Shown piece by piece: positions 26,136 to 62,357 of a stretch of DNA of 62,660 bases (the stretch's first letter is position 1; every line of letters starts with the position of its first letter). The DNA is from Bdellovibrionota bacterium. GTDB taxonomy: Bacteria; Bdellovibrionota_C; UBA2361; JBGSMV01. Under the pieces are notes generated by a model that ran no database searches, was not told the DNA's origin, and saw only the letters and a program-made list of their open reading frames with translations. The position numbers were made by a program, and so were the translations under genes. The stretch lies in the NCBI GenBank assembly GCA_044356455.1, contig JBIKWF010000011.1, positions 1-62,660 of the forward strand, read 5' to 3'.

Positions 26136-26972
26136 ATGGCATCAAAGAAACCAGGCCTTGTAGGTCTTGTAGAAACTGAGATCGAAAGTTCGGTTGAGAA
26201 TTCCTCCGCAGTTATCCCGGGGGGGGGTGTCCCAGGAGATATTGCAGCAGGGGCTCCCGATAAGGCTAAGGCGCGCCAGAAAAGCTATATTATGGATCTT
26301 CGCATCCATAGCCCAGCTTCCTTGGGATATTTGGGAGTGGAGGGACTCGATACCGCTCCTGCGCTTGTGCGTCTTGCGAAAGTGAAAGGTCTCGACGTGA
26401 TTGCGGTGACAGATTTCTATAGCGGCAGCTTCATAGACCGCGTTGCAGAAGCTGCTCGTGGAAGTTCTTTGACTGTAGTGCCAGGAGTGGTCATTCGCTG
26501 TGCGATTCCAACATGCCAGGACGTTATCTTGACGTGCCTGTTTCCGGAATCTTTCACGGGGTCGAAGATAGAGGAGTTTTTAAAGGCCATAGATGTTCCT
26601 ACCTCGGCCTTTGGCTCGCGCTCGTTTGTGGTGAGTAAGTCCCTTCGCGAAACGCTCGCGGTAGTTGAGAAATTCCAGGGCGTGGCACTCCCAAGCCGTA
26701 TGGACAAGACGCCTCACCGCCTAGCAGCCATCCCTACGCTTGTTGAGGAATACGGTTTCAGAGCTTTTGATCTTGCCTATGGGGATAGTACCAGGTTCTT
26801 TAAAACAAAATGGCCTAAAATTAAGTTTCATCTTTTCAGCTTCTCAAATGCAAATGCCTTAGCTCAGATTGGAAGCCGCATCGCAAAAGTTAAAATGCCG
26901 ATCCCGGGATTTGAAGGCATTCGGCAGATTGTGAGTAGGCAGCATGGTCCTTCCACGGGCGTTTCGGCCTAA
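26136..26972 (+). CDS. PHP-domain-like protein with degenerate metal ligands
   Basis: DLRIHSPAS, GLDVIAVTDF, VVPGVVI and SNAN align with PHP motifs. Confidence 0.75.
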   Translation: MASKKPGLVGLVETEIESSVENSSAVIPGGGVPGDIAAGAPDKAKARQKSYIMDLRIHSPASLGYLGVEGLDTAPALVRLAKVKGLDVIAVTDFYSGSFIDRVAEAARGSSLTVVPGVVIRCAIPTCQDVILTCLFPESFTGSKIEEFLKAIDVPTSAFGSRSFVVSKSLRETLAVVEKFQGVALPSRMDKTPHRLAAIPTLVEEYGFRAFDLAYGDSTRFFKTKWPKIKFHLFSFSNANALAQIGSRIAKVKMPIPGFEGIRQIVSRQHGPSTGVSA

Positions 26973-27072
26973 AGGTCTTTGGACCTGGGTCCCGCAAGCT
27001 CAGCTTGTGATTGACCGATGGGGTGAACCGTCGCATTCTCATCTCCTAGGTTAGTGTTTGGGAGGCTCCTCT

Positions 27073-28722
27073 GTGTCAGCTAGATCGAGATCGTCTCGTC
27101 CTCGTGGGGCTCGCGCGAAGATTCCGCGAAGCGCGCCAGTCATGCGTAGCGGCAAGTTAGGTCAAAGTGCAGAAAAACTCATTCGCCAAGCCCTGCGTGC
27201 AGTTGAGTCGCGCGGCTCAGTAAATAAGGGGACGCCGCTCATGGAGCGTGCGCACTTTGGCACCACCATCTTCATTGCAAGCTGCGAATTGAAGATGCGC
27301 ATGGGGCGATTCACCGTTTATGTATTTCAAGATTTAATTCATAAAGGCTATATCCTCGCGATTGCTTACGGGGAAATCCACAAGGCCAAAGAGCTCTATA
27401 CTCGATTGCACTCGTCATGCGTCACGAGTGAGACACTCCGTGGCTGTGACTGTGACTGTTCAAAGCAACTTGAGGGGGCGCTCAAACGGATCGCTGAGCG
27501 TAAAGCGGGAATTCTTTTCTACCTCATTCAGGAGGGACGTGGCGTCGGGTATGTAGCAAAAGCGCGAGACCGCATGCTTGTTCAAGCGTCGCTTGACGAG
27601 CTTTCAACCTTTGAGGCTTACGCCTGCATGGGGCTCAAGAAAGATTACCGCAACTATGAAGGCATCGCCTCAATTGTTCATCTGCTTGGAGTTAAGGCGC
27701 CCTTTGTGGTGCTGACCAATAATCCTGACAAAGTTGACGCCCTCAAGGAGCTGGGCGTTAAAGTGAAGGGGACTGAGAGTATCGAGTTCGACGCAGGTCC
27801 CTATAACCTCGCGTATCTCAAGTCGAAGGCTCAAAGCGGGCATGCCTTAAAGAGACCTGCGTTGGCACAGCTTCGCCGTGCGATTCCCCCTGAGAAGGTG
27901 GTGCCTTTTAATCCGTATGCTCTTAAAGGAGCTGCTCGTTTCATCTACTGCGCGAGTTATTTCTTGCCCATGAAGCCGGTGGATGGAGAAACGATTATCT
28001 CTCGAGCGCAGTTCGAGGAGGTTTTTAAGCATAACGACTTGGCCCAATATCGACAGGGCCCTGGCGCACTTATTCGTGAGGTAAGCGAGCTCGATAGGGA
28101 GCGCGTACTCGTGTGCATGGATCGCAGGAATTTCGCTCGCTATCGAAGCGACCCGGCGCATGCTGAAGTGGTCGCATTAGTCACCACGCCCTATTGGTTC
28201 AGGGTGCACGTCTACTATGACGTGGTTTCGGGCCAGGACTTTGTAGTCCTTACTCATGGTGAGTCGAGAGGCTTTGGAGGCAAAGGCAGAAGCGCTCCTC
28301 TAGTGAGAGTTCATAGTGAATCAATTTTTGACCGTTTCCCCATGACTGACGTGGAAAATCGGGACAAGCTTAAGCAAAGCGCGAAGATGATAGTGCGAAA
28401 TGGAGCAGGTCTGATGGTGCTGCTCTATAACGATGGGCGAGGAGCAGGCTTTGGCGCGCACGCGACAGATAGAATGTTTCGTGAGCGCCGCGTCACGAAC
28501 TCCTCAGACGAGACCTATACGCAGCTTGGGGTGCCCTACGACTCTCGCGATTACGAAGCGACGATGCTTCTGATAGCACATCACGTGCGCACTAAGCGCA
28601 TACAGATGATTATGAATAATCCTCATAGTCTCGTGCTCAAGCAGGAGTATGCGATGGCGCTGCATCGGCAGGGGCTTCAGATTGACCGTTGGATATTCTT
28701 GGAGGACGAATTTCGGTCATGA
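27073..28722 (+). CDS. Protein with two GTP cyclohydrolase II (RibA)-like domains
   Basis: Domain 1: RLHSSC..CDC, QEGRG, LTNNPDK, YLKSK..GH. Domain 2: VRVHSES, NDGRG, DSRDY, MNNP. GTG 27073 follows GGAGG. Confidence 0.85.
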   Translation: MSARSRSSRPRGARAKIPRSAPVMRSGKLGQSAEKLIRQALRAVESRGSVNKGTPLMERAHFGTTIFIASCELKMRMGRFTVYVFQDLIHKGYILAIAYGEIHKAKELYTRLHSSCVTSETLRGCDCDCSKQLEGALKRIAERKAGILFYLIQEGRGVGYVAKARDRMLVQASLDELSTFEAYACMGLKKDYRNYEGIASIVHLLGVKAPFVVLTNNPDKVDALKELGVKVKGTESIEFDAGPYNLAYLKSKAQSGHALKRPALAQLRRAIPPEKVVPFNPYALKGAARFIYCASYFLPMKPVDGETIISRAQFEEVFKHNDLAQYRQGPGALIREVSELDRERVLVCMDRRNFARYRSDPAHAEVVALVTTPYWFRVHVYYDVVSGQDFVVLTHGESRGFGGKGRSAPLVRVHSESIFDRFPMTDVENRDKLKQSAKMIVRNGAGLMVLLYNDGRGAGFGAHATDRMFRERRVTNSSDETYTQLGVPYDSRDYEATMLLIAHHVRTKRIQMIMNNPHSLVLKQEYAMALHRQGLQIDRWIFLEDEFRS

Positions 28723-29822
28723 CGTCACCAGATGGTCACGACCCATTGGGGCATGAGATTCTTGCCCAAAGGCTTGCCTCGATTCCAGGCGTGGCGGAAG
28801 AATATCTTAACGCGCTCCTTGCTCAAAACGCGTGGGAAGAGAAGGGTGACCTTGCGGGAGTTCGGGAGATTACCATCTCAGGCACGGGAAGCTCGCTCGC
28901 GCATGCACAGTATCTTGCATGGCTCCTTGCAACGGTGCCGCAACTTAAGGTGCGGGTAGAGTCATTTGACGCCTTCTACTCTGGCACTTTTGTTGTTCCT
29001 AATAGCAAGAGAGAAAGTCTGCTTGTCGTCATTAGCCAAGGCTTATCTCCGAACGCGCAAATAGTGCTTCAGAATCGCGGCAATTTTGGCAGGACTGCGC
29101 TCTTAACTTCAGTCACGCCAGCGGGCGCGCGCAGAACTGGGAAGGCTGAGCGAGCTCAGCTTGTTGAAGCCATTTCATCCGAAGGTGGATTGGTAGAGCG
29201 GTTCCCGCTGGAGGATGAATATGAGGTGCTTGTTCGGATCGTAGGGCCACTGCTGGGGTATCTTGCTGCGGCCCAATTTGCGAAACGCCTAGGAGCGTCG
29301 GTATCAACACCTGACCCAGCCACCATTCGGAAGGCACTTGAGAGTGCACTTGACGTAAGCTCGTGTGAGAAGGGCGATTGGACCTATGCAAGCCTTTCGC
29401 GTGGCTCGGTAGTGCTGGCGCCTGCCCCCCTGTGCTCATTTAGCTCTAATCTAACAACCAAATTTGTAGAGGGGCTCTTTGTTCCCGCTCCCTTGTTATG
29501 CGAAGGCCTCGCGTTTGCTCACGGTGGATTCCAGTTTGCCGTAAGTGCTCAAGCTCCAGTGATTATGCTAGGGGTAAAAAAGAGCGAATTCCCAGCGCAG
29601 TATGCGCTTCTAAAATATGCGTCGGAAATGTGCCTTTCGGCAGGTGTCCGCTCATTGCTTCTGCCGAGTTCGCTTCCTATCCCTTTTGCCATTCTTGAAT
29701 ACGAAATGAGGCTGAATGCAATCATTGTGCAACTGATGAGAGAGCAGGGTATTCCCCAACGCAACTGGCCAGGTAAAGGCCTAGATAGGGCGCTCTACGC
29801 AATCAGTAAGCCCCTAGCTTAA
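28719..29822 (+). CDS. SIS-domain (GlmS/FrlB/AgaS-like) protein
   Basis: ISGTGSS, ISQGLSPN, KFVE..FAHG; ATGA overlap with the upstream stop. Confidence 0.75.
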   Translation: MTSPDGHDPLGHEILAQRLASIPGVAEEYLNALLAQNAWEEKGDLAGVREITISGTGSSLAHAQYLAWLLATVPQLKVRVESFDAFYSGTFVVPNSKRESLLVVISQGLSPNAQIVLQNRGNFGRTALLTSVTPAGARRTGKAERAQLVEAISSEGGLVERFPLEDEYEVLVRIVGPLLGYLAAAQFAKRLGASVSTPDPATIRKALESALDVSSCEKGDWTYASLSRGSVVLAPAPLCSFSSNLTTKFVEGLFVPAPLLCEGLAFAHGGFQFAVSAQAPVIMLGVKKSEFPAQYALLKYASEMCLSAGVRSLLLPSSLPIPFAILEYEMRLNAIIVQLMREQGIPQRNWPGKGLDRALYAISKPLA

Positions 29823-30072: not shown

Positions 30073-31068
30073 CTATTGAAGTGGGACTGTATTTGCAGTG
30101 GGAGGCATGGGTGGCCTAAAAGTCCCGGGGGGCCACTGGGCAGAGTAATCCCCCCGCTTCCAGCGCTGGTAGCACTGCTCGCAGAGGTCCTCTATCTCTC
30201 GCTTAGCCTTAATGATTACCAAGCGCAGCTCTTTATCCCCGCAGATGACAAAGACCTTTCGTGAGCGGGTTTTCGGAATATGCGGCTGCATGAGGGGCTG
30301 CAAGAGCAGCTTCTCTTGCCCCATCACCCTACCGCCCTTCTCTAGCCTCTCTGCCCTCATGAATTTCTCGACGCTTTCCACCTCCTGCATGATCTCAGCA
30401 TTGAGAGCTGCAATTTCCTCAGGCTCGGTGACTCCAAAGACGGCTGCCCATAGGTTGGGAAAGAAGTTTACCCTGTGGTGCCTCTGGCTCCTCTTGAGCA
30501 TCTTGGTAAGAAGCGCACGCTCCTGCCTAATCGTGAGGTCATTCACGGGAGACTTTGGGACCGCAGATTGACGGATGAAGGGAACTCTTTCAGAGACGCG
30601 AAGCAGGGGCGAGTTCTTCTTGGAGCAGAACCCCTTAAAGGAAGAGTAGCCAGGGTACTTACTGACCGAATCCACCAGGTTAGCCCTCACGGGGTTAAGG
30701 TAGAAGTACACCTTTCGCGCCATGGCACTCTTGAGGTCTGGGACGAGAGCTACGTTAGGCCTCCCTTCCCAAAGTGAGAGCCGGTCAAGCCCATGAAGAC
30801 GCTTGAGGTACTCTGAAAGGTTCTTTTGTACCTCTGCGTAAAAGTCAGACGCCTGCTTGGCATCCCAGGCTATCACCAAAAGATGGGCATGGTTACCCAT
30901 CCACACGAAATCAACGAGGGTAACCTTTTGATCTCGCTGAGAGCGGGCGAGCGCGCTTTTGATGAGGGTCTCAATGATGGGGCGAGGAGGCAGAGGAAGC
31001 CCTTCGGTGGCCCTAAACGTTACCTCATAGAGGTTCCCTGACTCGAAATAGCGGCGACCTCGCGGCAT
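30073..31068 (-). CDS. REP-associated tyrosine transposase-like (Y1_Tnp/HUH) protein
   Basis: MPR start, YEVTFR, FVWMGNHAHLL (HUH), YFYLNPVRANLV..Y..YSS. Confidence 0.85.
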   Translation of the reverse strand: MPRGRRYFESGNLYEVTFRATEGLPLPPRPIIETLIKSALARSQRDQKVTLVDFVWMGNHAHLLVIAWDAKQASDFYAEVQKNLSEYLKRLHGLDRLSLWEGRPNVALVPDLKSAMARKVYFYLNPVRANLVDSVSKYPGYSSFKGFCSKKNSPLLRVSERVPFIRQSAVPKSPVNDLTIRQERALLTKMLKRSQRHHRVNFFPNLWAAVFGVTEPEEIAALNAEIMQEVESVEKFMRAERLEKGGRVMGQEKLLLQPLMQPHIPKTRSRKVFVICGDKELRLVIIKAKREIEDLCEQCYQRWKRGDYSAQWPPGTFRPPMPPTANTVPLQ

Positions 31069-31185
31069 GTAGCACCAGCAGCCTAGATAAAAAGACTGCT
31101 GGAGTAATCGAAATTTCGGGAGGAAAGTTTCCTGTGCGAGCAAAAAAGTGGGTGGCACCAGGGCCAGGGGCCAGGTTAGGGGGGA

Positions 31186-33238: not shown

Positions 33239-35563
33239 TCAAAAAAGAGTGTGAATCTTTGAAATTTTGCTCTTTGGCAACTGTGCGGGGTTACCATCGT
33301 CTGGGTGGAACCCGCCATCAATCTCATATACGAGGTTTGGATTGCCCGGATTTCTGACCCAACTCGTTATAATCCGCAGCTTTGCATCAACACGCTGCAC
33401 GGTCATTACGGCATCCGGGTCTATGCCGCCAATCGCGACGATCTCTTGCTGCCTGCCAAATTTATACGAAAAGGTAGGGTCGATAAATTTAAAGCGTCGT
33501 ACGTCTAAGTCTTTCTTGGCCTGGTAGGCGCCAACTATCAGCCTATCCCCGAGTCTATCCTGCGCAGCGAGGACCTCTTTCTTGTCGTACCCAAGGAGGC
33601 CTAGGCCGCGGGCAAATGATGCCGCGATGCTCCACCTTCTTGAAGTTGAAAGTCCATAACTTGTGTCATAGCCCGGGCCAGACCCGACGTGGTCTGCAGC
33701 CGCTTGTCCAAGCTTCCCGCCGATTAAATCATTATTGTAGCGCAGAAATTCTCTCTGAACTGCCGTGGTCAGCCGAGAATGAGATTGCCGAGCCTGAGAG
33801 GCAAGATTATTACACAAAGTAAGCCAGCCCAGCCGAGTAAAAGTGCTTAGTACCTCAGAGGGCTTAAGCGGGCCATCCTCAGAGCTCAGCCCACGCCAGA
33901 TCAGATTGCTTCGGTAGAAGCGGCCCATTTTGTACTTCCAGCGCTCCGCATCTTGGGACGTAATAAGCCCAAACATGCGGGTAGCATCGTGATCAATCAG
34001 TGCGATTTCTACGAGCTCCAGGCCACGTCCGGGAATATGGCAGTAAGCTTTGTTTGCCTTTACTAAAAGCTTGAAATCGTCCCGAAGGGCCTCGAGACTA
34101 GGGAGCGGCTCTTTTTTGAATTTTCGGTAGAGCTCATCATCTCGGCTGAATCTGATATCGAGATAGGCGCCAAATTCCGCTCCGTCAATGCGGTACATGG
34201 AGACATTTTTGGTGGTCTTTTTCTTGCCGCGATAACGCAGTTCAAGCATCACCTCGCGACTCATACTGGGAAATAGAAATTCGGGGGAGTCCTCGAGCCT
34301 AAGTCCTAATTGCAGGCGAGTGGTGATGTCGCGATAGAGCGCGTCGGTGCTCAATATTCCGCGCTCCACGTCTCTCACCCAATCACTTGGAGCCTTGAGG
34401 ATGTCTGCGTCGGGGTCGGTTAGTCTGGGCCGTGAGATGCCTACTTCATCAAGAGGGGCATAGAGGCTCTCATAGCGAACCGTCCGGCCATTTCCGTCGC
34501 CGAGGGGATGAATCGAGATTACATCCCTGTAATGCAGAGCAACCGCCTTGATGTAGCCAAGGACTTCCTCGGGAGTTTTTAGCTCTTTTAAACTGCCGCG
34601 CACCAACGCGAATGCGGCATAGCGTTCATTTAGTAGGGCCTCGATAATCGCTTTCGTCAGAGTCTGAAATTCTGCGGTCTGCCAGTCTCGTGCGTTGAGT
34701 CTCTCCTCAGGATTTTTTTCGCAGAATGCAAGGTAATCGGCATAAACCTTAGGCGAATGTGCCTCAAGTCGGCTTGCTGCCTCCGGCTTTAGATAAGCCG
34801 CGTCAGGATAAAGAATGTTTCCCCTAACACGTTCGTCCTTTGAGGTGGGAAGAGCATGCGGGTCAAGGGGCTCAAATCCTAGGTAGGGATTTTTGGCCAG
34901 GCGTCTTATTTGATTTCTATCGAGGCCTCGCTCCGTTTCAGACCCCACCACCGCATGACAGCGGATTTGGCCGATTGCGCGGCGCTTAATCCCATCAATG
35001 CTTCCTCTCATGGCAATCCGGTGCACCTCAAGGAGGCGCTCAAGGCATGGGGGAGAGACCGTGGCTTTTAAAAAGCCATTAACCCTATCCATATTCTTGA
35101 AAGCCGCAGCGTTGCCGCCCTCAGAGTCGTATAGGGTATGAAGGCGCTTATCTAGCAGAGATACTCTGCCGTTGCTCCTAAAAGCAGACATGACTTGCGG
35201 AGCTACATGGGCGAAGTCGATGAAGCGAGAGGAAGCGAGGAGGTGTTTTAAGTCCTCGCGTTTTTCTGGGGTAAGCGTTTTCAGCGCCAGTTCAAAGGCC
35301 GCTTTATCCTCGGCATATTTCGCGATTCGTTCTTCTCCGTTTTCCGCCTTAGATTTGGCGTATTCAATTATCGCACGGTCAGCAGAAGGTATGGCCTCGG
35401 TGAGTTCGCCTAGGCTGTCAGTAGTGCTATCTGCCTTGGCAGTGCTCTCGGCAATAGGCGCTCTTTTTGCGGGGAGGCGGGGTTTTGAGGGGCTTGGCAT
35501 ATCGCGTTCCGGTACAACTACTATCGGATCAAAAAAAAGCGTGTCCGCCGATACCTCCCTCAT
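33239..35563 (-). CDS. Fic-domain protein with a C-terminal ADP-ribosyltransferase-like domain
   Basis: HPLGDGNGRTVR Fic motif; C-terminal IWRG...LSTS...QQEIVAIGGI (R-S-E pattern). Start at 35563 or 35500. Confidence 0.8.
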   Translation of the reverse strand: MREVSADTLFFDPIVVVPERDMPSPSKPRLPAKRAPIAESTAKADSTTDSLGELTEAIPSADRAIIEYAKSKAENGEERIAKYAEDKAAFELALKTLTPEKREDLKHLLASSRFIDFAHVAPQVMSAFRSNGRVSLLDKRLHTLYDSEGGNAAAFKNMDRVNGFLKATVSPPCLERLLEVHRIAMRGSIDGIKRRAIGQIRCHAVVGSETERGLDRNQIRRLAKNPYLGFEPLDPHALPTSKDERVRGNILYPDAAYLKPEAASRLEAHSPKVYADYLAFCEKNPEERLNARDWQTAEFQTLTKAIIEALLNERYAAFALVRGSLKELKTPEEVLGYIKAVALHYRDVISIHPLGDGNGRTVRYESLYAPLDEVGISRPRLTDPDADILKAPSDWVRDVERGILSTDALYRDITTRLQLGLRLEDSPEFLFPSMSREVMLELRYRGKKKTTKNVSMYRIDGAEFGAYLDIRFSRDDELYRKFKKEPLPSLEALRDDFKLLVKANKAYCHIPGRGLELVEIALIDHDATRMFGLITSQDAERWKYKMGRFYRSNLIWRGLSSEDGPLKPSEVLSTFTRLGWLTLCNNLASQARQSHSRLTTAVQREFLRYNNDLIGGKLGQAAADHVGSGPGYDTSYGLSTSRRWSIAASFARGLGLLGYDKKEVLAAQDRLGDRLIVGAYQAKKDLDVRRFKFIDPTFSYKFGRQQEIVAIGGIDPDAVMTVQRVDAKLRIITSWVRNPGNPNLVYEIDGGFHPDDGNPAQLPKSKISKIHTLF

Positions 35564-57138: not shown

Positions 57139-57990
57139 ATGACAGCAGCGCTTGGCACCCCTCCCGTAATGGACCTCAGCATAAGCCTTCGAGGCAAAGT
57201 AGCATTTGTTACAGGAGGATTCCGTGGAATTGGTCGTGAATGCGTCAGGTCTTTATTGGCGCATGGAAGCCGCGTGGCATTTACCTTCGCTGAGGGCCAT
57301 GAATCGCAAGAGGAGGCCGCGGCCTTAGTAGCTGAAAGCCCTGACTGTCTTTCAGCTCACCCCCTCGATCTTAAGTCGCTCTCCTCAATTCAAAGCAGTA
57401 TGGAAGCTGCCATGAAAAAGTGGGGGAGGATTGATATTCTTGTAAATAACGCTGCCGTTGGCTCAGCAACCGTTAAGGCCTTTGCTCCTGATGCGAGTAC
57501 TCAAGATTCGGCTCTGCTTGCGATAAATGCAGACGGTGCGCTGAAGGTCTGCCAGACGTTCTTAGCTCTCATGGGTAATGATGCCTCAGAGTCTCCCCTG
57601 AAAATCATAAATGTGAGTTCTGTGGGCGGAGGAGTGCAGGTGTTCCCTGGCTTTCGGCTCGCTGATGGTATGAGCAAGGCAGCCGTTGCTTTTCTTACCA
57701 AGCAGCTTGCGGCCGAGCTTACTCATTCCAAGATAGACGTGTTCGCGATTTGCCCCGGAGCAACTCAGACTAAAATGTTCCAGGCCAGCACTCTTGATTC
57801 GATGAATGACGGGGAGCGAGAAGCTTTTGTGCATTCTCTTCCCAAGCATCGGCTTATCGAGCCCTCGGAAATTGCCTCTTTAATGGTATTTTTGGCTTCG
57901 GGATATTCTACTCCTCTGCACGGAGCCGTCATTGATGCCTCCATGGGGCTCGGAGTGCGGCCGGGGATGGTGACGGAGAAGGCGCACTGA
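57139..57990 (+). CDS. SDR family oxidoreductase (DxxSK variant), paralogue 1
   Basis: VTGGFRGIG, IDILVNNAA, INVSS, DGMSK, ICPG. Confidence 0.9.
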   Translation: MTAALGTPPVMDLSISLRGKVAFVTGGFRGIGRECVRSLLAHGSRVAFTFAEGHESQEEAAALVAESPDCLSAHPLDLKSLSSIQSSMEAAMKKWGRIDILVNNAAVGSATVKAFAPDASTQDSALLAINADGALKVCQTFLALMGNDASESPLKIINVSSVGGGVQVFPGFRLADGMSKAAVAFLTKQLAAELTHSKIDVFAICPGATQTKMFQASTLDSMNDGEREAFVHSLPKHRLIEPSEIASLMVFLASGYSTPLHGAVIDASMGLGVRPGMVTEKAH

Positions 57991-58038
57991 TTATAGATTG
58001 GATTGCATGTTGTTTGTGTAGTGAAGGATGTTGTTGTT

Positions 58039-58941
58039 ATGAATGCAGGTCCTAGTTCCGCAGTTGGTTCCTCAAAAGATCCTCTTCAAAAGCCTCCTAG
58101 TTTAGGTTCTCGGTATCTCCCCACGCTAGATTGCCGCGCGAGCATAGAAGGCAAAGTCGCACTTGTGACAGGTGGAGCCAAGGGCATTGGTCTTGAAGCA
58201 GTAAAGAGCCTGCTTCGAAATGGGGCTCACGTTGCTTTCACTTATAACCGCTCGGCGGATAGAGCAAGAAGATTTGCCGCGTGCGCGCCAGAGCGTTCCT
58301 CCATTCACCAGTTAGACCTAAGTAGCGCAGATTCGATCGCTGCAGCGGTAAGTGAGGTGCGTGAGCGATGGGGCCGGATAGATATTCTTGTACACAATGC
58401 AGCCGCAGGTTCGGCTACAATTAGGCACTATGAGAAGGACCCCGCAAAGCTCGATGAGTCGATGATTGTGATTAACCTGCTTGGGACTTTAAGAGTCTGC
58501 GAGGCAGCCATGCCACTCTTACAAGAAGGAGCGCGTGACTATGCGCGCAAAATTATCCTTCTTAGCTCAGTGGGTGGAGGAATTCAGGTGTTTCCTGGGT
58601 TTAGGCACTCAGATGGTGCAAGCAAAGCTGGAGTAGCGGCCTACGCCAAGCAGCTTGCCGCGGACAATGTACATACGAAAATTGATGTGTTCGCAATCTG
58701 CCCTGGAGCTACCGACACTCCGATGCTTCAGGAAAGTACACTTAACCACTTAACTGCTCCAGACAGAGAGAAGCTGCTTAGCCATCTTCCCAAACGCAGG
58801 CTTATACATCCGGCGGAAGTTGCGCAGACTATCGTGTTTCTCGCTTCTCAGCATTCTACTTGCCTTAATGGAGCGGTTCTGGATTGCTCGATGGGGCTGG
58901 GCGTTCGTCCAGGGCTAATAACTGAGGCTGGTGGGCATTAG
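58039..58941 (+). CDS. SDR family oxidoreductase (DxxSK variant), paralogue 2
   Basis: VTGGAKGIG, IDILVHNAA, LLSS, DGASK, ICPG; ATG 58039 follows AAGGA. Confidence 0.9.
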   Translation: MNAGPSSAVGSSKDPLQKPPSLGSRYLPTLDCRASIEGKVALVTGGAKGIGLEAVKSLLRNGAHVAFTYNRSADRARRFAACAPERSSIHQLDLSSADSIAAAVSEVRERWGRIDILVHNAAAGSATIRHYEKDPAKLDESMIVINLLGTLRVCEAAMPLLQEGARDYARKIILLSSVGGGIQVFPGFRHSDGASKAGVAAYAKQLAADNVHTKIDVFAICPGATDTPMLQESTLNHLTAPDREKLLSHLPKRRLIHPAEVAQTIVFLASQHSTCLNGAVLDCSMGLGVRPGLITEAGGH

Positions 58942-59055
58942 GAGTTAACTGCCGCAGTGGGGAGTTAGTTCTGTATGCTCTCGTAGTGCCTTACGGAGTT
59001 TATTGAAGACTGCCTGCATTCGAATCCTGCCGGGCACTCGTGCGATATACTATAC

Positions 59056-59075
59056 AAAAAACCCACTTGGGGGCT
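59056..59075 (-). terminator. Possible weak terminator of the URC1-URC4-upp operon
   Basis: Minus strand AGCCC-CCAAGT-GGGTT followed by a T run. Confidence 0.35.
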
Positions 59076-59200
59076 GCAAGAGACCTGCCCTGCCTAAATC
59101 CGTGGTTGTCCAGCCCATCTTTTTTCGCCGGCTACCTCGGGAGTGAAGCCGGACTATCAAGGGTAGGATAGCCGCAAAAGGATATGCTTGGGACTCCCCT

Positions 59201-59833
59201 TTACTTCGTTCCGAATAGTCTGTCCCCAGCATCGCCAAGCCCAGGAAGAATGTATCCCTTTTCGTTCAGGCACCTATCGAGCGCGGCGCTAAAAATTGGC
59301 ACATCGGGATGCTCATCGTGAAAGTTTTTCACGCCTTCAGGCGCGGCGAGAAGGCACACAAAACGGATTGACCTTGGGGTGGCTTCTTTAATGCGGTGGA
59401 TGGCAGCGACGGCAGAATTCCCCGTCGCGAGCATGGGGTCAAGAACAATGACCTCGCGATCGGCAATGTCCTCTGGGAACTTGCAATAGTACTCAACGCT
59501 TTGGAGGGTTTTTGGTTCGCGGTAGAGTCCGATATGCCCCACTCGCGCGGAAGGAATGACTTCGAGCATGCCTTCAAGCAAGCCGAGACCCGCGCGTAGG
59601 ATTGGAACAAAAACAATTTTCTTTCCTTCGAGCTTCCAGGCTGAGGTTGTTTCCAGAGGTGTTTCAATACTTATTTCGCGTAGCGGGAGGTCGCGTGTGA
59701 TTTCATACACCAAAAGAAGGCTTATCTCCTTAAGGAGTGTTCGAAAGAGCCACGACGGCGTGTCTTTCTTGCGCAGGATAGAGAGCTTGTGCCGAATGAG
59801 TGGGTGATCAAATACGTGTAATGAACGATTCAT
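59201..59833 (-). CDS. upp: Uracil phosphoribosyltransferase
   Basis: [41 protein letters not shown]. Confidence 0.97.
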
Positions 59834-59841
59834 GACTTCTC

Positions 59842-61089
59842 CTAAAATACAGTTCCGTCGCTGATAACTTTAATTGGTGGTCCTGAGTCGCTGCGGCGCT
59901 CGGCCGCGAGCCTTCTTCCTGCTGCCCACGTGCCACCTTGAAGAATCTTGGCGAGGGGCATGGTGGTGGGTGTGAACGCAGCGTTTTGGTTTGACCCCAG
60001 TGCGCTTCGCACAAGTGGCGCAATCTCGTCCAGCAAACTTACCGTAAGGGCGCGCCACTCTACTATGGGAATGTCCCCCACGTTCCAAGCTTTGGTGAGG
60101 ATCTCTTGCGACCGCGGAACTATTGCTCCTCCGTCAAGAAAGAGTCCGCCGTTTCGGTATTCCGCAAGTCCGGTGAGCTCATCAAGACCCGTTACTTCTA
60201 TCCCATGCCACTCAAGCGGCTCTATAAGAGAGTAGCTGAGCCACTGGGAAAGTTTATGAAAGGGCACAAGCTGCGTGGTCTCATCATTGGTGACCACGCC
60301 CGGGTGGCGCCAGACGTCTCCAAGGTTATGACCATGCAGCTCTAGTCTGCCAGGCCAGATGGGGCTTAGAGTTTCAAGGATCTGAGAGAGTATGGCAGTA
60401 GCGGGGAGGCGCTGAGAGGTGACTTGTGTAAGCAGCTTTTCAAAGAGGCCTCCCGGTCTCCCGCCTATGCTATGCAAGGCTGAGCCAAGGCTCTTAAGTA
60501 GCTGTACTCTACCCTCTAGTCCTGTCATGGGGTTGTGCGCATCAACTTGGAACAGTGCTTCAAGATCGTGTGTGGTGAGTTTTTTGAGCCTTTCAGCGTC
60601 CACCCGCAGAGGATCCTCGGCATGGGATGAGAACACGCCACGCATGAAGGCATCAAAACTCGCAAGAGCAAGCCCCTCGCTTCTTCCGATACAAAATCCT
60701 TTTTCGTCTCGGTATTTCCAGGCCATGCCAGCGCCGGCATCAAGGAGCACGCTGACCACGATTAAATCGTAGAGCGACTTGCCTCTTTCAACAGGAGTTC
60801 GTTTCGCGAGCAGATCTTTTAGACCTGCGGTGCGTCTTCCTCCTTCACCAGGCGGCGAGAAATGTCCGAAGCGACTGTGATAAGGGATTTCTAGTGTGGG
60901 GTAGCTGGCGCGAGTTACTTCAGCAACTAATGCTGCAAGTTTTGGCAGCGCCGAGACATCCAAGGTAAAGTAGCTACTTTTCCCCGAAGCGACAAAGTCA
61001 TAGACCAGCCGGCAACGCTTTCTCACCGCTTGAGAACTTCGCAGGCTTTTTACAGCAGGGGAGACGGGCGGGAGAGTAGGGGCACTCAC
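59842..61089 (-). CDS. URC4/urg3 (DUF1688) family protein
   Basis: [55 protein letters not shown]. Confidence 0.92.
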
Positions 61090-62357
61090 AGATCTCTTCC
61101 CTTCTTCTTCTTTAATTCAGCGGCATCGGGAGCGCCTTCAGGAGTAAAGTAACCCGCGGCCTTTTTTGCATCCATTTCTACCTGGGCATCTTTAGGGATG
61201 TAGTGGTCAGGAATCGGGACGCGTTCCTTGATCACTATCCCCGCCTTGGTCATGGCGTCATACTTCATGTTGCTCATGGAGACGAGGCGATCGATGCGAG
61301 TGATCCCGAGCCATACCAAAACGTCTGGCATGAGTTCCTGAAAGCGCATGTCCTGAACTCCTGCCACACATTCTGTGCGTAGGAAGTAGGACTCAGCCCG
61401 GTCTCCGCCCTCTTGGCGCTTACGTGCATTGTACACCAAGAACTTGGTTACTTCGCCAAGCGCGCGGCCCTCTTTGCGGTTGTAGACAATAACTCCGCCG
61501 CCGCCCTGCTGCGCTGTTCTGATGCACTCTTCAATCCCATGCACGAGATACGGGCGGCAGGTGCAAATGTCTGACCCAAACACATCAGAGCCATTGCATT
61601 CGTCGTGAACTCTCACGGCGAGAGGTTTTGAATGGTCGGTGAGAGCTTTGAGGTCTCCAAAAAAGTATAGAGTTTGACCGCCGATGGGGGGCAAGAAGAC
61701 GTGCAAATCAGGGCGCGTGATGAGCTCAGGAAACATTCCGCCCGTATGCTCAAAAAGCCCGCGGCGCAAATCTGTTTCAGAGATCTCAAAACGCTCCGCA
61801 ATGCCCGGCAAATACCAGACAGGCTCAATGGCTGCCTTCATTACACGGCAGTCTCCTGCTTTGGTGAAAATTTCCCCGTCCGGCGTGATGCGTCCCGCTT
61901 GGCTCGCCTGCAGTAACTCGGGCATGTTCATGTGGGCATGGGTAATCGCGATGGTGGGGCGAATGTCATAGCCCTTATCGTAGTAGGGCTTAAAAACACG
62001 CTGCACGCTGGCGCCCCAAGGGTCAAGTGAGACGATGCGTTTGGGGTCGTACCAACTTTCAAAGGGCCCAATCTCATCTGCCGGCGCGGTGTTTGTGAGA
62101 TCGGGCTTGTGCATGGCGTCAAGAGCTCCCGCACTGATGGCGAGAGCGCGGTATACAGAATAGGAGCCAGAGTGCGTGCCTATGCAATTGCGGTGCGCCG
62201 GATTAGTGAGCGAACCTACAATGGGGCCGCGTTGCATGGGGTCTTTGGCGCCCCAATTGATATCAGGAGTATCTGCTCCGCTGGCACGTGGGTGGGACGT
62301 GAGGACGATGTGTTTCTTTTTTGAGGACTTCGGGGCGTTAGAACTTTCTGTTGTCAT
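61086..62357 (-). CDS. URC1-type GTP cyclohydrolase II family protein
   Basis: IVLTSHP, RGPIV, IGTHSGSYSVYRAL N-domain; RVHDECNGSDVFGSDICTC, KEGRALGEVTK; GTGA overlap with URC4. Confidence 0.92.
   Translation of the reverse strand: MTTESSNAPKSSKKKHIVLTSHPRASGADTPDINWGAKDPMQRGPIVGSLTNPAHRNCIGTHSGSYSVYRALAISAGALDAMHKPDLTNTAPADEIGPFESWYDPKRIVSLDPWGASVQRVFKPYYDKGYDIRPTIAITHAHMNMPELLQASQAGRITPDGEIFTKAGDCRVMKAAIEPVWYLPGIAERFEISETDLRRGLFEHTGGMFPELITRPDLHVFLPPIGGQTLYFFGDLKALTDHSKPLAVRVHDECNGSDVFGSDICTCRPYLVHGIEECIRTAQQGGGGVIVYNRKEGRALGEVTKFLVYNARKRQEGGDRAESYFLRTECVAGVQDMRFQELMPDVLVWLGITRIDRLVSMSNMKYDAMTKAGIVIKERVPIPDHYIPKDAQVEMDAKKAAGYFTPEGAPDAAELKKKKGRDL

Follow-up and report, generated by a model that had tools for sequence, protein, structure and literature searches.

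A conserved tandem GTP cyclohydrolase II-SIS gene pair, a possible guanine-nucleotide module of bacteria and giant viruses

Two overlapping genes and their products

We analyzed 62,660 nucleotides of contig JBIKWF010000011.1, from a Bdellovibrionota bacterium (GenBank assembly GCA_044356455.1), a stretch designated hereafter as the window. On its plus strand it carries a gene for a tandem GTP cyclohydrolase II (GCH II)-family protein of 549 amino acids (aa; 27073..28722), which overlaps, through an ATGA start/stop junction (28719..28722), a gene for a 367-aa double-SIS sugar-phosphate enzyme of an unnamed family (28719..29822). Our main finding is that this pair is real and conserved, an enzyme module of known folds that has apparently not been described before. 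Whether the two proteins form one module that dismantles guanine nucleotides, in the way that the URC pathway does for uracil but acting on a purine, is a reading that we consider evenly balanced.

A Shine-Dalgarno-like GGGAGG (27060..27065, plus strand) lies 7 nucleotides before the GTG start at 27073, and the protein collection lists the protein with this length of 549 aa (P0004). Residue numbers given below are those of P0001, which begins at ATG 27142; 23 has to be added for the longer protein. Pfam PF00925 (GTP_cyclohydro2) was found twice in the open reading frame 27073-28722 (181.8 bits for a cut-off of 23.3), full-length homologues are 56-100% identical, and the two domains share 27% identity with each other (E 1e-12). 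The predicted model is of moderate confidence (predicted local distance difference test, pLDDT, 71), and its best fold match is E. coli RibA, 2BZ0 (Z 16.4, root mean square deviation 2.3 over 165 residues). The nearest named relative (locus L006) comes from a Bdellovibrionota metagenome-assembled genome at 70% identity, the remaining ones being mostly from Verrucomicrobia at 53-60%. In a tree, domain 1 sequences cluster apart from RibA on long branches from which the order of events cannot be read.

Domain 1 (27259..27852, plus strand) is likely the catalytic one, as judged from its alignment with 2BZ0 and from its conservation in a family alignment of 195 distinct tandem members. It contains the motifs HSSC (27409), CDCDC (27445), QEGRG (27529), AKARDRMLVQ (27556) and TNNP (27715), and its conserved sites are the zinc ligands C93, C104 and C106, Q109, E131-G-R133, K140, T156, D168, R170, T192-N193 and K197. 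The zinc pattern, C93-X2-S-X7-C104-X-C106, is CX2GX7CXC with Ser for Gly. Nine more entries, of which six come from three genomes lacking two of the zinc cysteines and three are truncated, were dropped for missing the Cys pattern used in trimming, and because this pattern acted as a filter, the invariance of R88, H90, C104 and C106 is partly built in. Independently of the filter, Q109, R133, K140, D168, R170, N193 and K197 are found in 195/195 members, D168 and R170 being the equivalents of RibA Asp126 and Arg128, while E131 and T156, the latter equivalent to RibA Thr114, are conserved in 194/195. Domain 1 retains the residues aligned with the GTP site of RibA.

The place of RibA Tyr105 is occupied by Arg144-Met145 (27571..27576, plus strand): the 2BZ0 alignment puts Arg144 there or else, owing to an insertion of one residue, Met145, and neither position holds a Tyr in any of the 195 family sequences. 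Tyr105 is tied to ring opening in RibA, and work on Streptomyces GCH II reportedly found that the reaction halts at the formylated formamidopyrimidine (FAPy) product once the active-site Tyr is lost. A possible second-site Tyr, Tyr160 (27619..27621, plus strand; 195/195), stands where RibA has Asn and could replace Tyr105; however, 173/195 members retain an equivalent Tyr in the Zn-less domain 2 as well, so that its role may rather be structural. Ser replaces RibA Glu53 in 190/195 members, the other 5, a basal group, having Glu.

Domain 2 (28192..28635, plus strand; Pfam E 4.4e-16), with VRVHSES at 28303 and NDGRG at 28429, is a Zn-less GCH II repeat that has no Cys in its catalytic part and is likely structural. 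Its Asp-x-Arg motif is kept in most members, including the window protein, but the domain is degenerate in distant fusions. We therefore interpret it as a built-in dimer partner without activity of its own, RibA itself being a homodimer (PMC10366380). In three genomes of a single genus (G009, G038 and G027; loci L097, L098 and L099), domain 1 also lacks two zinc cysteines, and the gene has no SIS neighbor.

The partner protein was recognized by its fold. Its match to Pfam SIS is weak by sequence (13.8 bits, cut-off 25), a PDB sequence search found no relative, and a PDB profile search with the SIS profile matched only creatininases, through the fused part; its identity was settled by a fold search. 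With the model of this protein (pLDDT 93), Foldseek retrieved the isomerase domain of GlmS (E 2.5e-12, TM-score 0.70), as well as NagB-II and FraB. The sites of the protein comprise an S106-Q-G loop, an E251/H268 pair and the family-specific E167, R173 and Q272. Among 241 SIS sequences, E251 is conserved in 237 and H268 in 240, and E167, G269 and Q272 in all. In GlmS and FrlB, a Glu acting as general base and a His acting as general acid are 16 residues apart (PMC10285752); E251 and H268 were matched to them by motif context, not by superposition, and are spaced by 17. A complex prediction for the pair scored 0.00, which counts neither for nor against an interaction. The unnamed SIS family amounts to 549 clusters at E<=1e-10, and the clusters listed in the ESM Atlas are dominated by Verrucomicrobiota, Myxococcota and Nucleocytoviricota.

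An earlier note, made from the letters of the window, had described a two-domain GCH II that keeps three zinc cysteines in its first domain and none in its second, that lacks the RibA Tyr, and that is coupled by an ATGA overlap to a SIS protein. The analysis agrees on each of these points, for the SIS identity by fold, the sequence match being below the Pfam cut-off, and every motif named in the note was located. Three features were not in the note: Ser in place of RibA Glu53, the invariant Tyr160, and the Asp-x-Arg motif of domain 2. The -4 spacing of the overlap was found in 4 of the 52 related loci measured. The GC content of both genes resembles that of neighboring genes, and a promoter and terminator scan gave hits at chance level (3 for 1.9 expected, and 5 for 3.4 expected).

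Linkage, fusions and purine neighbors

Gene order was examined in the best 80 of 223 GTDB loci found. A SIS gene is present within about 2 kb downstream of the tandem gene in 53 of them, 16 have none, and 11 are on contigs too short to tell; among the informative loci, SIS adjoins the cyclohydrolase in 53/69. At the genome level, 58 tandem-carrying genomes were considered (50 from the 80 loci, and 8 relatives), and a SIS match exists anywhere in the genome in 44. The phylum of the window is patchy for the pair, with the tandem in 10/61 relatives and SIS in 6/124 genomes.

Fusions tie the same activities together. Creatininase is fused to 10/33 SIS hits, a GCH II domain is present in each of the nine long homologues of SIS, two of these being triple fusions that also include creatininase, and some metagenome proteins join the tandem, SIS and a creatininase-type deformylase in one chain. 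In giant viruses, a two-part GCH-GCH'-SIS fusion is encoded in 6 of 8 loci (L234-L241). No SIS match was found in plasmids and no tandem in phages, and a single-protein scan of viruses gave no match. A metagenome scan returned a SIS domain in 6/80 loci and a cyclohydrolase in 1/80; it was drawn to creatininase motifs, so Myxococcota-type contexts were barely sampled.

Several isolated cases were recorded. Four giant-virus contigs with the fusion also carry a nearby stand-alone tandem, and a choanoflagellate protein set contains a GCH-GCH'-SIS fusion (P0159). One metagenome protein (P0229) is a canonical, Tyr-bearing RibA fused to SIS, a single case that may be a gene-calling artefact. At L127:6742-8934 and L120:5480-6697, SIS is fused to, or then followed by, a PRK07213 amidohydrolase, which we take to be the MJ0699 family. 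The latter is listed as a predicted archaeal riboflavin step, probably a pyrimidine deaminase (PMC8305020, PMC5397151).

Neighbor families in the 80 loci were clustered from open reading frames chosen with a codon model. The most frequent are an NCS2 xanthine/uracil-family permease (32 loci), RidA-like proteins (31) and amidohydrolase_2 (26), followed by amidase, DUF3891 and a TonB receptor (16 each), HPRT-like proteins (13), adenosine deaminase-like proteins and NUP (12 each), methylthioadenosine nucleosidase-like and S-adenosylmethionine hydrolase-like proteins (8 each), AMP nucleosidase (5), and adenine deaminase and formamidase-like proteins (3 each). Of eight families related to purines, one or more occur in 27 of the 44 loci of at least 19 kb, compared to 0 of 20 control windows of 20 kb taken arbitrarily from seven of the same genomes; since the profiles were built from the test loci, which are mostly from related Verrucomicrobia, this is a strong contrast and not a statistical test. 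Locus L120 encodes DUF3891, cyclohydrolase, SIS and amidohydrolase on one strand; its opposite strand carries formamidase, RidA-like and amidase genes as well as two of the creatininase family. The viral fusion directly adjoins IMP dehydrogenase in L235, and in L240 it lies at a distance of three genes from GMP reductase. Neither among the recurring families nor among 89 other immediate neighbors in the 80 loci was there any rib, fol or pterin gene.

The earlier note had proposed an uncharacterised pathway of nucleotide ring opening plus deglycation, with creatininase-family, short-chain dehydrogenase and URC partners and no rib genes nearby. This proposal is partly supported. Its linkage, which the note had made a condition of the proposal, and its creatininase partner stand, given the 53 linked loci and the fusions, triple ones included. 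The ordinary riboflavin genes are indeed elsewhere in the window's genome, on other contigs (ribBA and ribE on C116, ribD on C32, ribH on C154). The dehydrogenase partner is not borne out, as such genes do not recur around the 80 loci; neither do URC genes, and the URC operon of the window is 30 kb away from the pair.

We infer the substrate and all of the chemical steps of guanine-nucleotide dismantling from what was observed, namely the anatomy and folds of the proteins, their linkage and fusions, and the purine neighbors in relatives. Neighboring permeases, deaminases and a phosphoribosyltransferase would take up purines and salvage them to nucleotides. Domain 1, with Zn, would then ring-open GTP at the imidazole and split off pyrophosphate to yield the FAPy ribonucleotide, probably without releasing formate, domain 2 serving as the built-in inactive dimer partner. 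The SIS enzyme would open the sugar ring and hydrolyze the imine, as FrlB does, to free ribose 5-phosphate. Finally, enzymes of the creatininase, formamidase and amidohydrolase types would, wherever they occur, deformylate and deaminate the product, with release of nitrogen. The domain 1 residues that align with the GTP site of RibA, the Glu/His pair, the purine neighbors, and the RibBA and FolE2 already present in the window's genome are consistent with this proposal. In a broader version, which we put forward tentatively and with some doubt, purines would be salvaged to GTP, a pseudo-dimeric cyclohydrolase would open the ring, the new SIS family would recover the sugar, and the product would be deformylated; purines would be destroyed at the triphosphate level without xanthine oxidation, giant viruses would have captured the two core enzymes as a single protein to reshape the guanine-nucleotide pool of the host, and it may feed riboflavin synthesis in RibA-less Opitutaceae.

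The purine neighbors also bear on a different substrate or product. The adenosine- and adenine-deaminase-like and HPRT-like genes lead to hypoxanthine and inosine monophosphate, and Ser for RibA Glu53 in 190/195 members would fit another purine triphosphate (inosine, xanthosine or adenosine triphosphate); a 2-oxoglutarate-Fe(II) oxygenase, which adjoins the viral stand-alone tandem in 2 loci, might suggest a free aminopyrimidine destined for a secondary metabolite or a modification. Such an assignment is nevertheless highly improbable, as no tailoring genes recur among the neighbors and Glu131, Arg133 and Thr156 match RibA positions.

Transporters among the neighbors point to external purines, and so argue against an activity in nucleotide-pool clean-up, in which FAPy- or oxidised GTP would be the substrate, domain 1 mainly a pyrophosphatase, and the SIS enzyme a means of recovering the sugar phosphate. 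We judge clean-up very unlikely, even though the ring-opening Tyr of RibA is gone in the tandem. Zinc is required for ring opening and dispensable for pyrophosphate release (PMC10366380), a property that would suit the one genus that retains the tandem without two zinc cysteines; however, the great majority of members, those of viruses included, keep these cysteines, and the Cys-less copies have no SIS neighbor.

Folate, riboflavin and the genome of the window

A number of observations weigh against guanine-nucleotide dismantling, in addition to the way in which the purine contrast was built. Fourteen of the 58 tandem-carrying genomes have no SIS match, and none was found in G001, a 91% complete genome of the same genus as the window. 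The window's genome has no creatininase and no match to the NCS2, ADA, NUP, DUF3891, RidA-like or amidohydrolase_2 profiles, and the first and last of the proposed steps are therefore without local support; its accessory matches are limited to unlinked HPRT-, nucleosidase- and amidase-like ones, and it carries the two-gene core only. Nitrogen scavenging would be a poor reason for a virus to retain the module. Moreover, a Glu base is needed for isomerisation and not for simple hydrolysis, which favors an Amadori rearrangement. In the order of the window, a 5-formyltetrahydrofolate cyclo-ligase-like gene is a recurring neighbor (5/9 loci), and one locus (L118/L273) has a weak match to 6-pyruvoyltetrahydropterin synthase downstream (E 1e-4).

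The last three points would fit a FolE-independent synthesis of pterin, in which the cyclohydrolase opens GTP, a creatininase-type partner deformylates the product, and SIS carries out the Amadori step to give 7,8-dihydroneopterin monophosphate. GTP cyclohydrolase I works in three chemical steps, to which the three fused activities correspond, and the Glu/His pair of SIS is suited to enaminol chemistry. Chlamydia provides a precedent with RibA plus TrpF (PMC4161248), the cyclo-ligase-like gene is adjacent in L118 as well as in the 5/9 loci, and 4 of the 58 genomes, all outside Verrucomicrobia, have neither FolE nor FolE2. We still regard this route as unlikely: FolE or FolE2 is present in the other 54, and in the window's genome too, three of the four genomes without them also have no SIS match, the 80 GTDB loci are devoid of fol and pterin neighbors, and creatininase is absent from the window's genome. 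As far as sequence can tell, sugar release by SIS and an Amadori rearrangement towards pterin are both compatible with the data. In the window's order, six loci (L100-L104 and L118) have a second, 255-aa cyclo-ligase-like gene that is transcribed divergently from the tandem, and L118 combines two cyclo-ligase-like genes, a 736-aa cyclohydrolase overlapping SIS, and then the weak synthase match.

A substitute entry into riboflavin synthesis would have the tandem make a formylated or deformylated ribosylaminopyrimidine, a BrbF-type formamidase finish the RibA reaction, and SIS remove the excess. A RibA above the TIGR00505 cut-off is missing from 41 of the 58 genomes, and 49 have a creatininase-family gene; five near-closed genomes (L129-L133) have RibD and RibH and otherwise only a Cys-less RibB fusion, and the enzyme feeding BrbF is stated to be undiscovered (PMC9478397). 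Yet canonical RibA is kept beside the tandem in 17/58 genomes, and in that of the window, the tandem was never among rib genes in the loci surveyed, and viruses carry it, so that we find such an entry distinctly unlikely. As a control, 151 genomes sampled from the order of G097 were scored: canonical RibA is present in 6 and the tandem in about 14, as counted from scores and frame lengths. The RibA gap spans this whole order, and the tandem therefore cannot be its general filler; as an explanation of the gap in Opitutaceae it was largely rejected. The first riboflavin step appears to be an unfilled pathway gap across the order.

The remaining features of the window are less directly connected with the pair. 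A complete URC operon is encoded on the minus strand at 57139-62357 (urcA 62357-61086, DUF1688 and upp; URC genes 59201-62357), and two short-chain dehydrogenase genes converge on it; in G001 (L096), URC genes are about 5 kb from the tandem gene. Just upstream of the pair, 26136-26972 encodes a short PHP-like protein, which the TrlF and Ppl models match weakly. This gene, CorC and a membrane Fe-S oxidoreductase reflect order-wide lineage synteny and were rejected as parts of the module. Just downstream, 30073-31158 is a divergent IS200/REP-associated transposase-like open reading frame with a weak Y1_Tnp match, and 33239-35563 encodes a 774-aa protein with a weak Fic-domain match.

Novelty and comparison with known systems

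We found no description of the tandem-SIS pair in the literature searched, which excluded supplements and most subscription journals, where much enzymology of this kind is published. The present annotation of the family as riboflavin synthesis or creatininase is probably wrong. If guanine-nucleotide dismantling is correct, the pair would define a way of breaking down purines that avoids xanthine and urate, and would give a first function to the unnamed SIS family, with its hundreds of clusters in Verrucomicrobia, Myxococcota and giant viruses. The alternatives, if true, would also be new chemistry for these folds, either GTP cyclohydrolase I rebuilt from three enzymes or the missing enzyme that feeds BrbF.

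Domain 1 resembles RibA (EC 3.5.4.25; 2BZ0) in its fold, in its Zn-Cys spacing, and in having equivalents of Arg128, Asp126, Gln70, Glu92-Gly-Arg94, Thr114, Thr149-Asn150 and Lys154. It departs from it by the tandem duplication, by the replacement of Tyr105 by Arg/Met, of Glu53 by Ser, of Gly56-Asp57 by Ser-Glu and of Asn118 by Tyr, and by its location outside rib operons. The tandem scores below the RibA equivalog cut-off TIGR00505 (150.4 versus 205.85 bits) and above the looser NF001591 subfamily cut-off (189.3 versus 148, both domains counted). Domain 1 is a GCH II-fold enzyme that the Tyr and equivalog tests set apart from RibA, and the domain and operon tests from UrcA. S. coelicolor SCO6655 is said to be a single-domain, FAPy-forming GCH II paralogue with Met for the active-site Tyr, associated with the creatininase family and having no SIS partner. 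In place of this Met, the tandem would have either Arg144 or Met145, according to how the insertion is positioned. A third GCH II paralogue of S. coelicolor has a new function, according to a 2026 review (PMC13151069).

With GlmS (isomerase domain), the NagB-II deaminase and the FrlB/FraB deglycases, the SIS partner shares the double-SIS fold, a Ser-rich phosphate loop and the Glu/His pair. Unlike them, it has a Glu-His spacing of 17 and not 16, no glutaminase domain, and invariant E167, R173 and Q272, and it is only 11-18% identical to these enzymes. It may work like FrlB or NagB-II, yet by sequence it falls in none of those families.

In the URC pathway (URC1/UrcA UTP cyclohydrolase, URC4/DUF1688, URC6/uracil phosphoribosyltransferase; PDB 7EEV, 7EJ3), URC1 and URC6 lead to ribosylurea, from which URC4 removes ribose (PMC7530994). 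The likeness is in the combination of a GCH II-fold enzyme, a phosphoribosyltransferase and an enzyme that removes the ribosyl group, with release of nitrogen, an HPRT-like gene adjoining the pair in 13/80 loci. Unlike URC1/UrcA, the tandem has no GTP_CH_N domain (PF12471), which the window's own UrcA has, and ends with a Zn-less repeat; its partner is of the SIS fold and not DUF1688, its neighbors are purine genes, and DUF1688 with uracil phosphoribosyltransferase does not recur in the 80 loci.

Two further systems make use of a GCH II product. In Chlamydia, an Amadori isomerase, TrpF, acts on that of RibA to give dihydroneopterin monophosphate (PMC4161248), and in archaea (ArfA/ArfB) and rhizobia (BrbF) a creatininase-family deformylase acts on the formylated product (PMC9478397, PMC5397151). 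These routes fill folate or flavin gaps, whereas most hosts of the pair have FolE or FolE2, and the genes of the pair reside amid purine-scavenging genes.

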